This document shows positions 36,902-44,142 of a stretch of DNA of 64,000 nt, piece after piece (position 1 is the stretch's first letter; each line of letters begins with the position of its first letter). The stretch is from Desulfurococcaceae archaeon. Its GTDB lineage: Archaea > Thermoproteota > Thermoprotei_A > Sulfolobales > Desulfurococcaceae. A program made the translations under genes and the position numbers. Under the pieces are notes generated by a model that worked only from the letters and a program-made list of their open reading frames with translations, made no database searches and was not told the DNA's origin. Location of the stretch: NCBI GenBank assembly GCA_038824035.1, contig JAWBBW010000004.1:34243-98242 (forward strand). The letters run 5' to 3'.

Positions 36902-37426
36902 CTAGGGCTTATTTGATTTTGTGACAATTATATTATTGGGCGTTGTCACGGTTAACGTAGCATATCTTCTCCTATAATATAGCTTAACACTTCTCACGTA
37001 CACGATGTAATCGGGGTTAACTAATGAGACCGGTCTTTTAATGCCCTCTGCTATGATCTTTACAGCATCATACGTATGAGCCGGTAACCTTGTTTCAAGC
37101 CAATAAAGCCTACCATGCAGAGTCACCCTAAATGATTTATCAAACGGGATCCTCTCCTCTGCAAGCCTAGTTGCATTCTCAGCTACCACTTCCACGTAGG
37201 GATCCATGACCATGTCAACGGGTATAACACGATAAAGGACCTGTATATTGTTTACAATATCCTTGACTTTCTCAACGAATTCATATGGATCTCCTGCTCT
37301 GAGAAGTATCACTGAAGGGCCTTTATCAACTAATACGTAGTCTATTCCATGACTCCTCAGCCTTGAGAGTATAAACCTGTAATTATCTATACCTGGCTCA
37401 TGTGTTATCAGTATATTGAAATTCAT
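36902..37426 (-). CDS. THUMP domain protein
   Basis: YRVIPVD, SFRVTLHGR, VSLVNPDYIVYV. Confidence 0.72.
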   Translation of the reverse strand: MNFNILITHEPGIDNYRFILSRLRSHGIDYVLVDKGPSVILLRAGDPYEFVEKVKDIVNNIQVLYRVIPVDMVMDPYVEVVAENATRLAEERIPFDKSFRVTLHGRLYWLETRLPAHTYDAVKIIAEGIKRPVSLVNPDYIVYVRSVKLYYRRRYATLTVTTPNNIIVTKSNKP

Positions 37427-39358: not shown

Positions 39359-39865
39359 ATGGATACATCGATATCGCAAACCCCTGTAAATTACCTTGAT
39401 TCTCAGGAAATGAGCGTAGATGACTTAATAGACACGATCCTGGTTAATTACGAGCTATATGTAAATACCTGGGATGAAAGGACATATATTGGTTTGATCA
39501 GGCTAATGAACAAGTATTTTGAATTGGTAACGCCCATTAAATACTTGCCAAGAGCCGCCGAGTTACTTCAAGAACGCTTGGTTCTTAGACTTTGGGAATC
39601 CAAGATACCAATTGAATTGCTGAGAGAGTTCATGAGGCAAATAATTACATTGAAAGAGCTTGCGAGTAGGAGAGATGATAGAATAATATATGAATATGAG
39701 AAGGCAAATGAGGTGCTTAACAAGATATTGAGCGAGCTCAGCGATAGATCTACGCCCATAAATCTAAATAAATTCTCAGAGTGCAATGAAGACATCTACG
39801 AGAAATCGCTCTGCTTGATATCACTGTCAATAATAGTGTTGATCATCTCGACTAACCCCGGTTAA
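39359..39865 (+). CDS. Hypothetical protein with hydrophobic C-terminus
   Basis: 168-aa ORF filling the gap; GGGG SD-like sequence before ATG; no recognised motif. Confidence 0.6.
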   Translation: MDTSISQTPVNYLDSQEMSVDDLIDTILVNYELYVNTWDERTYIGLIRLMNKYFELVTPIKYLPRAAELLQERLVLRLWESKIPIELLREFMRQIITLKELASRRDDRIIYEYEKANEVLNKILSELSDRSTPINLNKFSECNEDIYEKSLCLISLSIIVLIISTNPG

Positions 39866-41535
39866 AACGACTCGACAACCCTCAATATATCGTTCTCATC
39901 TGCTTTAATAACGCGGAAGTATTTGTATGAAATAGACCTGAGGCTCTTATTGTCTCCCATCACCATTACTGTCAACAACCTCGTTCCCGCTCTTTTCAAA
40001 CCATTTTCAACTGTTTTCTCAGCTATTCTATCTATACCATCCGTTATCAATACCAAGTCGGATACTTTGCTCGATACATCTCTCTCTATATCGGATATGG
40101 ACACTAATATAGCCCTGGATATATCTGTGCCACCACTACCCTTAACACGGGCAATGTACTCTATTAACTTAACAACATCCCCAGCTCTGGGTCTCTTATC
40201 AACCTTGATCAAAGGATATGGCTGGCTGTCAAAAAACCTCATATAGAACTCTCTACCACTTCTCACAGCCTTCATGTATAAGCTGATTGCAAGCGCCTTG
40301 GCCCATGTGATCTTTGAACCATCCATGCTGCCACTATTATGAACCACTATGTTATTGGCAAAGAACAAGTGGCGTTTATCGAGCCTTATGTCATATGTCC
40401 TTGAAATACCTGTCTCAAATACTCCATAAACCCTGGCGTGCTGTATTTCGAAGTCCTTCTCATTCAGAGATAAAAGTATATCACCGGCTTTCAGTTCACC
40501 GGCGAATTTGAATAATACTTCGCCCTTATTTATAACTGGCAATATATGATTAGAAGTTGTCTTCAATATCCCTTTCTCCGTGACAATTCCATATACCTTG
40601 TCAATAGACATCGCCTTGTCAATCACTCTTGCCTTCTCAATCAAGGGGCCATTATTGCTCATGCCCAGTACATATAACTCCTCGCCTATCTCTATTTTTT
40701 CAATTGGTTTCACAACACCATTTGAAAGCATGATGGATGTCCCCTCGGCAAGGCATTTATCCAATAACACATAAATCGGGCCTGGTCGCTCTGATAGTAC
40801 TTTCTCATATAACAACAACTGCTTCTGCATGTACTTTAAGTAAAATATTTCCTGTGGGTAAAGAAGATTCGATGGAACTATCCTTTCAATGTCATTGCCC
40901 AGCTCGTAACCTGAGATCTCACCTTTACGAGCCCTTTGCTTAGCTAGCTTCCCACGTAATTCCCATTTCTTTGTCTTGCCTATGATCTCCATTATTTTTC
41001 TAACATCCACATCTTTTGCTAACCTTATGACATCTATCGCTAGATCTTCAAGGGAGAAATCCGATATAGTCCCAGGTTCTAGGCCCTCCATTACCGATCT
41101 CAGCTTTTTCACATCCTCGATATCCCTTAACACGTTTCTAACAGCCTTATCCACCAATTGATCGACGCTTTTGATCTTGGTTAAACCCGCTGTTCTAAGT
41201 GTGTTCTCTAATTCCATTAGGTTTGTGTATTCGGAGAGAAATAATGCTGATGCAACACTGCTGAGAAACGCGTCCAGGATGGTTTTACTTCTCAATATAT
41301 GCGTCACTCCGATTTTCAATAGATTGTTAACAATGTTCTTGACATATTCGTTCTCACTCTCTTCATTCACCAATGGAAGTGGTAGATAAAATACGTAGAA
41401 GGTGTCAATGGCCAGTGCCAGTGGGATATCCGTTTTCCTACCAGATAACAACCTTGTTATTTTCCTGACTTTCTCCCCTCTATAGATCACGAGGGGGTCT
41501 TCGTACTTGATATTGCTCAATGCCCCTTTTTCCAC
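39862..41535 (-). CDS. vWA domain protein (ViaA/CoxE-like) containing a mini-intein
   Basis: GYELGNDIERIVPS; GPIYVLLDK-[140-aa intein]-SGSM; GGTD; LITDG; downstream of a MoxR AAA+ gene. Confidence 0.88.
   Translation of the reverse strand: MEKGALSNIKYEDPLVIYRGEKVRKITRLLSGRKTDIPLALAIDTFYVFYLPLPLVNEESENEYVKNIVNNLLKIGVTHILRSKTILDAFLSSVASALFLSEYTNLMELENTLRTAGLTKIKSVDQLVDKAVRNVLRDIEDVKKLRSVMEGLEPGTISDFSLEDLAIDVIRLAKDVDVRKIMEIIGKTKKWELRGKLAKQRARKGEISGYELGNDIERIVPSNLLYPQEIFYLKYMQKQLLLYEKVLSERPGPIYVLLDKCLAEGTSIMLSNGVVKPIEKIEIGEELYVLGMSNNGPLIEKARVIDKAMSIDKVYGIVTEKGILKTTSNHILPVINKGEVLFKFAGELKAGDILLSLNEKDFEIQHARVYGVFETGISRTYDIRLDKRHLFFANNIVVHNSGSMDGSKITWAKALAISLYMKAVRSGREFYMRFFDSQPYPLIKVDKRPRAGDVVKLIEYIARVKGSGGTDISRAILVSISDIERDVSSKVSDLVLITDGIDRIAEKTVENGLKRAGTRLLTVMVMGDNKSLRSISYKYFRVIKADENDILRVVESF
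40336..40755 (-). mobile_element. Mini-intein (140 aa, no homing endonuclease)
   Basis: Block A CLAEGT; block B LKTTSNH (TxxH); block F TYDI..HLFFAN; block G VHN followed by +1 Ser. Removal restores DKSGS. Confidence 0.92.
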
Positions 41536-41545
41536 GAAATCATCC

Positions 41546-42709
41546 TCATAAAATTAATTTCCTCTTTATCAACTCGATTATGTGCTCTATTTCTGTGAGG
41601 ACATTTATAGCCCTGTTCCTGACAATGTCATCGCTCAGTTCCTTGACCATTTTCCGGATTTTGTCACGTGCTATTTCAAGCCCCTTTAAATACTCCAAGA
41701 GCCTTGGATCCAACTCAGTTGTAGACAATAAATATGCTTTCACCTCCTTGATGTTCTCCTCTATTTCTTCTAGTTCTCTAAGCCTTTTCTCCCTGGCCTC
41801 TATCTCCTCGATCAATATTGCATATACTTTGTCTAATTCATCCCGATCTCTCGGGGCTACGTATTTCAACACCATTAGGTCTTCTTCAATTGCCTTTAAC
41901 CTATTGTTTAGGAAAGCTTGTGCAGCTATCAATTTCAAGGCTTTCCCCTTTCTCCTATCCGTCAAATGTACCCCTTGATCCTCCATTATGGCGTATAATT
42001 TCAATAGTTTCTGCTTAACAGAGGATAGATCGACCTCGAATATCAATGAGTTGATTACCTTGAGCTCTTCGAGACTTAATACTGGTTTCGCGGCCTGGTA
42101 AACACCTTTCTCAATTCTCCAAACCGCGTCAACCAATTCACCCCACTTGTCTTCTCCAACTGGTTTTACGAAATGCCTTATCAAGAACCTATCGTATATG
42201 GCCTGGTATTCAGGCTCATCTGGCACATTATTACTTGCTGAGATCAGAGTCCACAGTGGCACTTTGATCTCGTTGTACCCATCATATATGATCCTCTCAT
42301 TCATCAAGGTCAAGAACATGTTTAACACAGCTGAACTGGCGTTGAATATTTCGTCGATAAAGACGATCTCCGCTTCTGGCAATTTATTACGCGTGATCCT
42401 AACATATTTGCCCTCTTTAAGCGCGTTTATATCCAACGGCCCGAAAAGCTCATCGGGCTCCGTGAACTTTGTCAATAGGTATTTGAAAAACCTCGCATTC
42501 AGTAAATCGGCCGCTCTCCTCGCAAGCGCTGATTTTGCCGTGCCGGGTTCCCCTATTAATATCACGTTCTCAGCGACCATTAATGCCAGTGTTAATACAT
42601 CTGCCTCCTCCTCTCTACCCACAAATGGTTTTCTAAGCTCTTTTCTAAATAAGTTCAGCCTCTCAGCCAGCTCTTCAGCTTTTCTATGGAGATCTTGCAA
42701 ACACAACAC
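41546..42709 (-). CDS. MoxR/RavA family AAA+ ATPase
   Basis: GEPGTAKS, LTKFTEPDELFGP, VFIDEIFNASSAVLN, ISASN, AIYDRF, LTDRR. Confidence 0.9.
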   Translation of the reverse strand: MLCLQDLHRKAEELAERLNLFRKELRKPFVGREEEADVLTLALMVAENVILIGEPGTAKSALARRAADLLNARFFKYLLTKFTEPDELFGPLDINALKEGKYVRITRNKLPEAEIVFIDEIFNASSAVLNMFLTLMNERIIYDGYNEIKVPLWTLISASNNVPDEPEYQAIYDRFLIRHFVKPVGEDKWGELVDAVWRIEKGVYQAAKPVLSLEELKVINSLIFEVDLSSVKQKLLKLYAIMEDQGVHLTDRRKGKALKLIAAQAFLNNRLKAIEEDLMVLKYVAPRDRDELDKVYAILIEEIEAREKRLRELEEIEENIKEVKAYLLSTTELDPRLLEYLKGLEIARDKIRKMVKELSDDIVRNRAINVLTEIEHIIELIKRKLIL

Positions 42710-42827: not shown

Positions 42828-43310
42828 GTGCGCGCGACGTTAACGAGGGCTATGGATATGGACATGAGCGTATACCAATATTATGTCCTAGTGATATATC
42901 TGCTAAGTGATGTGGAAATAACCATTAGGGGTAATAAAGTCCTATTAAATAAGGGGGTCTACCTGTACGTTGGATCGTGTAAAGGGAGTGGAGGCGTATG
43001 GCCTAGGATCATAAGGCATCTCGAGTCGTCCAAAAAGACCAGATGGCATATAGATCAATTGACTACTAATAAGTTTTCAAGGATAATTGGGGTATTCGTT
43101 ATAAAGGGCAATGATGTTGATTATGAATCATTATTATCAAACGAGTTCTCAAAGATATTTAGGTATATTCCTCGTTTTGGCTCCAGCGATAAGCTATCTG
43201 ACCCCTCGCATTTATTCATATGTAATCACATAATCGACAAGTGCTTGGACAATGTGGTTAAGGTGTTTGAGGATAAAGACGTAGACTACATATGGATACA
43301 CAACGCTTAA
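42828..43310 (+). CDS. GIY-YIG (DUF123/Uri) endonuclease family protein
   Basis: GVYLYVGS, RIIRH, WHIDQL, FGSSD...SHLF. Real start is probably a downstream Met. Confidence 0.8.
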   Translation: MRATLTRAMDMDMSVYQYYVLVIYLLSDVEITIRGNKVLLNKGVYLYVGSCKGSGGVWPRIIRHLESSKKTRWHIDQLTTNKFSRIIGVFVIKGNDVDYESLLSNEFSKIFRYIPRFGSSDKLSDPSHLFICNHIIDKCLDNVVKVFEDKDVDYIWIHNA

Positions 43311-43361: not shown

Positions 43362-43829
43362 ATGTATCCAAGTACGTCCACGAGAAAAGAGAGCCCTTCT
43401 CACGTAAACATAATGGATCTTAAACCTGGAATGGAGAACGTAGCCGTGAAGGTAAGAGTGATTAGTGTTGATAAGCCGAAAGTCATACAGACCAAGAAAG
43501 GCCCAAGGACAATAAGCAATGCAATGATAGGGGATGAGACAGGCCGAGTAGAGGCCACTCTTTGGGGGGAGAAAGCTGGAAGTATTGACAAAGGACAAGT
43601 CATCGAGATCAAAGGGGCCTGGGTCACAGAGTTTAAGGGCAAGGTCCAATTAAATGTGGGCAAATCAAGCACTATATCGCAATTGCCACAAGACGCTGTG
43701 AGCGAAAATATACCGGATCAAATGCCAAGAGGTGGGGGAGCAGAGACCAGGCAATATCGTGGAAGAAAACCTCCTAGAAGAGGTACGCGTGAAAGGAGGG
43801 GTAGCGAGGAAGGGGAGGAATATGAGTGA
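43362..43829 (+). CDS. ssb: Crenarchaeal single-stranded DNA-binding protein
   Basis: Single OB fold (DLKPGMENV, IGDETGRV..TLWG, GAWVTEFKGKVQLNVG), Gly/Arg-rich tail and acidic end. Confidence 0.9.
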   Translation: MYPSTSTRKESPSHVNIMDLKPGMENVAVKVRVISVDKPKVIQTKKGPRTISNAMIGDETGRVEATLWGEKAGSIDKGQVIEIKGAWVTEFKGKVQLNVGKSSTISQLPQDAVSENIPDQMPRGGGAETRQYRGRKPPRRGTRERRGSEEGEEYE

Positions 43830-44142
43830 AGACGAGTTAAAGGGAAAAGTCTCAGATACCACTTTAAGTAAATACAACGAGATAAAAAGCCTAAAACCAA
43901 CCAGGCAAGGGGAGTTCATAGGGGCGGAGGAGGATAAATTCTACATAGCCCTGAGCGAAGAAGATGTATACGAGTTATCACCACTAGCATACTATGTGTG
44001 GGCCATGTGTGATGGCGAACACAGCGTCAAAGAGATCGCAGAGACCATTGTAAAAGAGGCTATAGTGGAATACCATGAAGTCGTCGAGCCCCTTGTAATA
44101 GTCCTGGATCAATTGGAGAAAGTTGGGCTAATAAAGTACTGA
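43822..44142 (+). CDS. PqqD/RRE-like winged-helix protein
   Basis: YELSPLAYYVWAMCDGEHSVKEIA...LDQLEKVGLI. ATG 43822 follows GGAGG and overlaps the ssb end. Confidence 0.75.
   Translation: MSEDELKGKVSDTTLSKYNEIKSLKPTRQGEFIGAEEDKFYIALSEEDVYELSPLAYYVWAMCDGEHSVKEIAETIVKEAIVEYHEVVEPLVIVLDQLEKVGLIKY

Follow-up and report, generated by a model that had tools for sequence, protein, structure and literature searches.

A 64,000-nucleotide stretch of DNA from a Desulfurococcaceae archaeon (GenBank assembly GCA_038824035.1, contig JAWBBW010000004.1, positions 34,243 to 98,242; the whole stretch is hereafter called the window) encodes a 557-amino acid protein with a von Willebrand factor A (vWA) domain, whose predicted metal ion-dependent adhesion site (MIDAS) is interrupted by an insert of 140 residues. 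Our data indicate that this insert is a class-1 mini-intein, predicted to be competent for splicing, lodged in the first MIDAS loop of a vWA protein resembling ViaA, and that it probably descends from a homing element and has probably adopted no role in its host. It is an ordinary intein whose host is less common, and a published survey has already counted a relative of it in a related genus. The precursor is encoded on the minus strand, as are all the parts of it described below, by the open reading frame (ORF) 39862..41535 (coding sequence 39865..41535, stop codon 39862-39864); it was recognized from the ORF list and from Pfam matches to VWA_2 on its C-terminal part and to intein families. 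The intein occupies precursor residues 261-400 (40336..40755).

Judged by its translation, residues 261-400 form a class-1 mini-intein. The insert begins with CLAEGT and closes with VVHN, and the next residue is Ser401, followed by GSMDG. The residues listed in the initial annotation can all be read from the translation: Cys1 (40753..40755), the predicted N-terminal splicing nucleophile and the only cysteine of the insert; the block B TxxH motif T67-S68-N69-H70 (40546..40557); block F from D122 to H129 (DIRLDKRH, 40369..40392), both residues lying within YDIRLDKRHLFFAN; and block G with the penultimate His and the terminal Asn that would cyclise, H139-N140 (40336..40341), forming VHN before Ser. 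In an alignment of six same-site inteins (A2) Cys1 is invariant in all six, as are N69, H70, D122 and the H139-N140 pair; H129 is substituted in an allele of 338 residues, described below, and in the homologue P0011.

The same assignment emerges from profile, sequence and fold searches. The Pfam Intein_splicing model matches the insert with E 2.8e-7 and 30.9 bits (25.6 bits on the precursor), under its gathering score of 35.8, and the NCBIfam model intein_Cterm scores 20.2 bits, above its cut-off of 15.6. Precomputed PF14890 matches exist on several same-site alleles, and one of these alleles, P0014, was above the cut-off when scanned. A phmmer search of the Protein Data Bank (PDB) aligned residues 1-140 of the insert to residues 1-139 of the Mtu RecA mini-intein 3ifj (E 1.3e-6), followed at lower ranks by the inteins Pho CDC21-1, Ssp and Npu DnaB, Spl DnaX and gp41-1. 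The AlphaFold2 model built from the six same-site inteins is all-beta and confident (predicted local distance difference test, pLDDT, 94.8; predicted template modelling score 0.85). When it was compared with the PDB by Foldseek, 67 chains were found at E<=1e-3 with solved inteins on top, the template modelling scores (TM) being 0.85-0.87 to the Mtu RecA, Npu DnaB and Tvo VMA inteins (0.86 with a root mean square deviation, rmsd, of 1.6 for Npu DnaB 4o1r). Since the profile, phmmer, AlphaFold2 and Foldseek results all lead to inteins, we conclude that the class-1 residue set and the Hedgehog/intein (HINT) fold are present, in agreement with the initial annotation, which had proposed a 140-residue mini-intein with this fold. 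An endonuclease domain, which the same annotation had considered absent, has no Pfam match within the 140 residues, and in A2 the window intein shows a gap opposite the roughly 200 extra residues of the 338-residue allele.

When the insert alone was searched with phmmer against 1.84 billion representative proteins, 424 matches were found at E<=1e-3 and 32 at E<=1e-10. The top-scoring matches to the intein alone (P0122-P0142) come not from enzymes with an intein but from proteins of 550-1130 residues in which three to five HINT domains (PT-HINT, Hint, Hint_2) stand in tandem; many of these proteins have a C-terminal Tim44-like domain and some have AXH-like hits.

Both the best sequence match (2in0 and 3ifj, E 1.3e-6) and the best fold match (2in0, TM 0.85, rmsd 2.2) is the Mtu RecA mini-intein, which resembles the window intein in its size of 139 residues, its Cys1, its TxxH motif and its terminal His-Asn, at 25-26% identity. 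It differs in that it was made in the laboratory by deletion of the endonuclease and comes from a bacterial RecA host, whereas the window intein is naturally small; moreover, the +1 residue of the Mtu RecA intein is Cys, as opposed to Ser in the window. Inteins of class 3 use a WCT triad (Trp in block B, Cys in block F and Thr in block G) and do not employ residue 1 as a nucleophile. This class was considered and rejected, as the only cysteine here is Cys1 and the corresponding positions hold Thr/His, Asp and His-Asn.

The insertion site was defined with an alignment of 23 homologues (A1), nine of which are intein-free, including proteins of Desulfurococcus mucosus, Staphylothermus hellenicus, Thermogladius calderae and Sulfurisphaera. 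These nine read ...YVLLDK/SGSMDG... (the slash marks the site) with no gap at the point of insertion, and D259, K260, S401, G402, S403, T470 and D499 do not vary among the 23 rows. The MIDAS of vWA domains is formed by a DxSxS...T...D pattern. The intein-free orthologue P0018 is above the cut-offs of both Pfam VWA_2 and Pfam VWA, and its LDKSGSM aligns with identical letters in the VWA domain of human CLCA1 (6pyo). On the strength of the A1 invariants and of this alignment, the intein is placed between the x and the first Ser of DxSxS, with the +1 serine as a predicted metal ligand; the initial annotation had likewise described a split DxSxS motif whose first serine is the +1 residue, and the contiguous orthologues and invariant columns bear this out. 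With DxSxS and the downstream Thr and Asp all present, the host domain is, at the level of sequence, a vWA domain with a predicted MIDAS. The precursor before splicing can reasonably be taken to have no normal MIDAS. A motif broken until splicing is a property of nearly every intein located in an active-site motif.

The N-extein (residues 1-260, 40756..41535), as delimited by A1 and by a model of the precursor, comprises a helical N-domain, a low-confidence linker and the first vWA strand, ending at D259-K260, so that the MIDAS Asp is at position -2. The C-extein (residues 401-557, 39865..40335), delimited by Pfam VWA_2, the model and A1, contains the remainder of the vWA domain, including GGTD (T470) and TDG (D499), and opens with S401-G402-S403 (40327..40335), that is, the +1 Ser acting as the predicted C-extein nucleophile and the two MIDAS serines, invariant in 23/23 rows. 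The Pfam VWA_2 match covers precursor residues 396-500. The precursor model has an overall pLDDT of 73.6, with a confident helical N-domain (helices within residues 14-186), a linker at residues 189-252 with pLDDT <50, a strand at 254-256, and an alternation of helices and strands over residues 401-557, C-terminal of the intein. For the archaeal N-terminal helical domain, which has no family match, a fold search with the whole precursor model returned no match either, all its hits being inteins. Cys1 was found by script count to be the sole cysteine of the entire 557-residue precursor, and the 417 extein residues contain none.

Splicing is expected to follow the standard class-1 pathway. Cys1 would undergo an N-S acyl shift at Lys260-Cys261, Ser401 would attack the thioester to give a branched intermediate, Asn400 would cyclise with the assistance of His399, and an O-N shift would join ...VLLDK to SGSMDG..., restoring DxSxS. 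Excision of the insert from the translation gives a 417-residue protein that reads ...IYVLLDK/SGSMDG at the junction, with GSGGTD (T470) and LITDG (D499) further down. In evolutionary terms, a homing intein would have invaded a very conserved motif, and its endonuclease would then have decayed and been lost, leaving an element that is no longer mobile. The splicing core could survive for long after that, most likely splicing constitutively at growth temperature and with no adopted regulatory role. The intein would persist because only a precise deletion leaves the invariant MIDAS motif intact, and for the same reason selection would keep it able to splice. Invasion, loss of the endonuclease and persistence through the precise-deletion constraint are ideas set out in the survey of Novikova et al. 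(2016, Mol Biol Evol 33:783; PMC4760082).

The initial annotation had raised the possibility that the insertion site is new, which does not hold. Table S2 of the same survey counts one intein in the vWA family COG2425 of Thermosphaera aggregans, a single entry of 1 that makes it the only intein of that genome, and the host is of the same protein family as that of the window (COG2425, YieM/ViaA-type). The proteins P0004, P0008 and P0284, labelled Thermosphaera, have a mini-intein of 141-144 residues between the same DK and SGSM as in the window. P0284, a UniRef entry labelled T. aggregans, shares 99% identity with P0003 across the intein and its flanks; with 423 residues it had the appearance of an intein-free Thermosphaera allele, but this was discarded, as the entry is an N-terminally shortened gene call with the intein still inside. 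Thermosphaera differs from the window organism in genus, the inteins being 32-35% and the exteins 49-52% identical. The words 'vWA', 'Willebrand' and 'Thermosphaera' are absent from the main text of PMC4760082; as the entry is a count in a spreadsheet cell and the main text has no vWA or Willebrand, the MIDAS position is not described in these parts of the survey. Our literature searches found no title or abstract concerning an intein in a vWA protein, and two papers in which the terms co-occur use them unrelatedly. The host family is therefore already catalogued and the window allele is a new, divergent member, while a description at the level of the MIDAS seems not to be in print within the literature searched.

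Alleles at the same site were found in at least five Desulfurococcaceae lineages, in a second family and also among more distant homologues. Fourteen of the best 120 homologues listed carry the intein, as judged by length or Pfam, and 13 of these, with P0002, the cluster representative of the window's own protein, left out, form the intein-bearing rows of A1 together with the window itself. The position of the insert is identical in all of them. Ten full-length rows contain mini-inteins of 139-144 residues, P0056, a fragment, carries an intein of this kind, and two rows of 776 residues, one of them named Desulfurococcaceae archaeon MEX13E-LK6-19, carry an intein of 338 residues. Three more distant homologues (583, 585 and 633 residues) also read DK/C...VHN/SGSM, and the intein is at the same site between DK and SGSM in two genomes from a second family of the order. 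The window intein shares 26-39% identity with the other inteins of this site, and the respective exteins 46-52% (61% for one partial row).

The 338-residue allele bears on a homing origin. Its roughly 200 extra residues are located between blocks B and F, the usual position of an endonuclease, and match LAGLIDADG_3 weakly (E 1.2e-3, 19.6 bits vs the cut-off of 22.5); phmmer matches of the allele in the PDB are confined to the splicing parts, with none for the extra insert. The consensus motifs of LAGLIDADG endonucleases carry an acidic residue. In the 338-residue allele (L024:2320-3333, genome G203; P0014/P0015) the corresponding segments, LLGLLTGG.. and FLAGVIDACG, appear to be without it. 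To judge from these sequences, the allele may be an endonuclease caught in decay. The search for endonuclease-bearing alleles at the same site, proposed in the initial annotation, thus yielded a candidate in this allele, but one that remains below the LAGLIDADG_3 cut-off, and no clearly active endonuclease.

The distribution of the intein is patchy. A vWA orthologue is found in 41 of the 41 sampled genomes of the family and the intein in six of them: that of the window, three of genus g5, one with the 338-residue form, and one in which it is split over two contigs. The window's own genus is represented by 17 species genomes, and 14 of the 16 others have an orthologue, all 14 intein-free, with open frames of 420-448 residues and two abutting matches; the two genomes with no orthologue match are 76% and 92% complete. 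A scan of the order with the intein alone matched 16 of 201 genomes, six at the vWA site and ten in other open frames lacking SGSM.

To trace this history, an extein tree was built with the intein removed from 61 rows (44 genome loci and 17 chosen proteins of the best 120 homologues listed; P0004, P0015 and P0056, near-copies or a fragment, were omitted). The window extein and the 14 rows of its genus are sister groups, with 98 in the Shimodaira-Hasegawa approximate likelihood ratio test, which argues for vertical inheritance of the host gene. Transfer of the whole gene with its intein had been suspected since the extein is closer to some other genera, and was rejected in view of this placement and of the long branches of the genus. 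The identity of the window extein to the same-genus orthologues is 38-44% in the N-terminal half and 47-56% in the other half. The same-genus orthologues (L049-L062) are in themselves unusually divergent, their end branches reaching 1.8 changes per column, in a family whose other genera are far more uniform.

Intein-bearing rows make up 16 of the 61 and require at least five changes of state on the extein tree; an approximately unbiased test rejects a single clade of intein-bearing exteins (log-likelihood lower by 160, p 1.7e-51). With the window as sister group to the remaining members of its genus, a single gain on the window branch is as parsimonious as a single loss at the base of the others. 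Although the intein tree is short and its support weak, its coarse split agrees with that of the extein tree, and pairwise intein and extein identities are correlated (r 0.85); old residence with repeated loss is therefore favoured over recent jumps. A recent acquisition was also sought in the composition, with no signal: the GC content of the intein is 0.402 and that of third codon positions (GC3) 0.450, vs 0.415 and 0.468 in the exteins, and the intein GC3 stands at the 31st percentile of 159 coding segments of the window.

The intein is under purifying selection much weaker than that on its host, as would be expected where splicing competence alone matters. For the closest pair with available DNA, both genomes belonging to g5, the ratio of nonsynonymous (dN) to synonymous (dS) substitution rates is 0.29 over the 141 codons of the intein and 0.095 over the 428 codons of the extein. 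A more distant pair, saturated in dS, has a dN of 0.48 for the intein vs 0.11 for the extein. Outside the catalytic blocks, evolution of the intein is about four times faster than that of the extein.

Several observations weigh against a splicing-competent former homing element with no adopted role. The Pfam intein models fall below their gathering cut-offs on the window sequence, a shortfall that is a matter of scoring threshold rather than a biochemical feature. The +1 serine is at the same time a predicted metal ligand of the host. The coarse agreement of intein and extein trees, and the lasting of mini-inteins at this site in several lineages, would fit a retained, useful element too. The dN/dS values come from one close pair of another genus and not from the window's own intein. 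Finally, among the same-site alleles none with a clearly active endonuclease was found, so that the homing origin is derived from one weak LAGLIDADG-like insert.

An alternative which we regard as unlikely is that the mini-intein has been kept as a conditional switch, a post-translational gate that responds to temperature, to a divalent metal at the flanking MIDAS residues, or to contact with MoxR, the product of the adjoining gene. The intein does break up a metal site whose Asp is at -2 and whose serines are at +1 and +3; endonuclease-free alleles with intact catalytic residues persist in several lineages; and it is the only intein detected in its 99.67% complete genome of 1.33 Mb, where the family models PF14890 and TIGR01445 each find this intein alone. 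Conditional splicing of archaeal inteins is documented (PMC5790916, PMC5238726, PMC4760082). However, nothing favours a gate over selfish persistence. The host machine needs no such gate, since all 14 same-genus orthologues and 35 of the 41 family genomes do without the intein, and the patchy distribution, the fourfold faster evolution outside the catalytic blocks and the existence of a same-site allele with a LAGLIDADG-like insert likewise speak against it. A redox trap through a disulfide of Cys1 was rejected: with Cys1 as the sole cysteine of the 557-residue precursor, a disulfide within the chain is excluded. As the splice junction is built of MIDAS ligands, divalent-metal occupancy or MoxR docking at the half-formed MIDAS could in principle set the rate of splicing, giving a natural metal- or partner-gated intein that times the activation of the MoxR-vWA pair. 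We consider this a long shot; if true, it might account for the long survival, in several lineages, of copies without endonuclease at this one site.

It is very improbable that the insert is a splicing-dead relic, the vWA gene being effectively inactivated or having a new role in this species. The Pfam scores below gathering cut-offs and the long branches of both the window intein and its extein would be compatible with such decay, but all catalytic residues are intact, the frame is open, the MIDAS and other vWA motifs are invariant in the exteins, and the confident HINT model argues for a folded domain. Five near-identical full-length public copies also keep the intein unchanged, with no changes in the intein and four in the exteins, numbers too small to be meaningful. 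That the insert is a HINT domain of another kind, bacterial-intein-like (BIL) or of the Hedgehog autoprocessing type, cleaving rather than ligating its flanks, is scarcely credible: Foldseek does list BIL and Hedgehog HINT domains as well, at TM of about 0.8, but the best sequence and fold matches are true inteins, the insertion interrupts a single conserved domain and orthologues run uninterrupted through the site, and the His-Asn end is followed by a Ser nucleophile.

Among the known systems closest to the mini-intein described here is the RadA intein of Pyrococcus horikoshii, which is also small, archaeal and free of an endonuclease, comes from a hyperthermophile and is located in a cofactor-binding loop; in Foldseek its structures 4e2t and 4e2u have TM of 0.75-0.80 to the model of the window intein. 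Temperature- and single-stranded DNA-dependent splicing has been measured for P. horikoshii RadA (PMC5790916, PMC5238726). The two inteins differ in host protein and insertion motif.

The window intein offers a clear case of insertion outside the usual proteins of replication and repair, one in which the +1 nucleophile doubles as a predicted MIDAS ligand of the host. The same-site alleles make up a small natural series for the study of intein decay and loss, including mini-inteins, one decayed endonuclease-like insert and many empty sites. The intein could be handy as a thermostable splicing module for cysteine-free constructs, because it has only 140 residues, the named relatives of its lineage are hyperthermophiles, and the only cysteine of the precursor is catalytic, although many such mini-inteins exist already. 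The regulatory idea would matter only if shown at the bench.

The initial annotation had proposed an AAA+ partner for the host protein. The host gene adjoins the gene of its presumed partner, a MoxR/RavA-like AAA+ ATPase (41546..42709, minus strand; Pfam bpMoxR, E 1.5e-63, AAA_5, E 8.5e-30), which is upstream on the same strand and ends 10 bases before the vWA start codon, so that the two genes likely form one operon. The ATPase matches NCBIfam RavA with E 1.4e-50 and 172.8 bits (cut-off 681), and the best named relative of the vWA protein is NCBIfam ViaA, with E 1.4e-6 and 27.8 bits (cut-off 500). By analogy, the pair is predicted to work like RavA-ViaA, though it does not score as an equivalog of it. 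The E. coli RavA-ViaA genes resemble those of the window in being an adjoining same-strand pair of a MoxR-type ATPase and a vWA/MIDAS protein; E. coli ViaA has no intein, in contrast to the vWA protein of the window.

Among the flanking genes scanned with Pfam none is mobile-element-like, and the neighbours look ordinary. Just upstream of the MoxR gene is a divergent gene of a DUF123 protein (42828-43310, plus strand; Pfam E 7.2e-21), followed by an SSB-like OB-fold protein (43362-43829) and a PqqD-like ORF (43732-44142) that overlaps the SSB-like gene; these three have no evident link to the intein. A CitMHS-type transporter is also encoded among the flanking genes. Two neighbouring ORFs, of 168 residues (39359-39865, plus strand) and 174 residues (36902-37426, minus strand), have no Pfam match at E<=1e-3. 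The 168-residue ORF is convergent with the vWA gene, and its final bases overlap the vWA stop codon.

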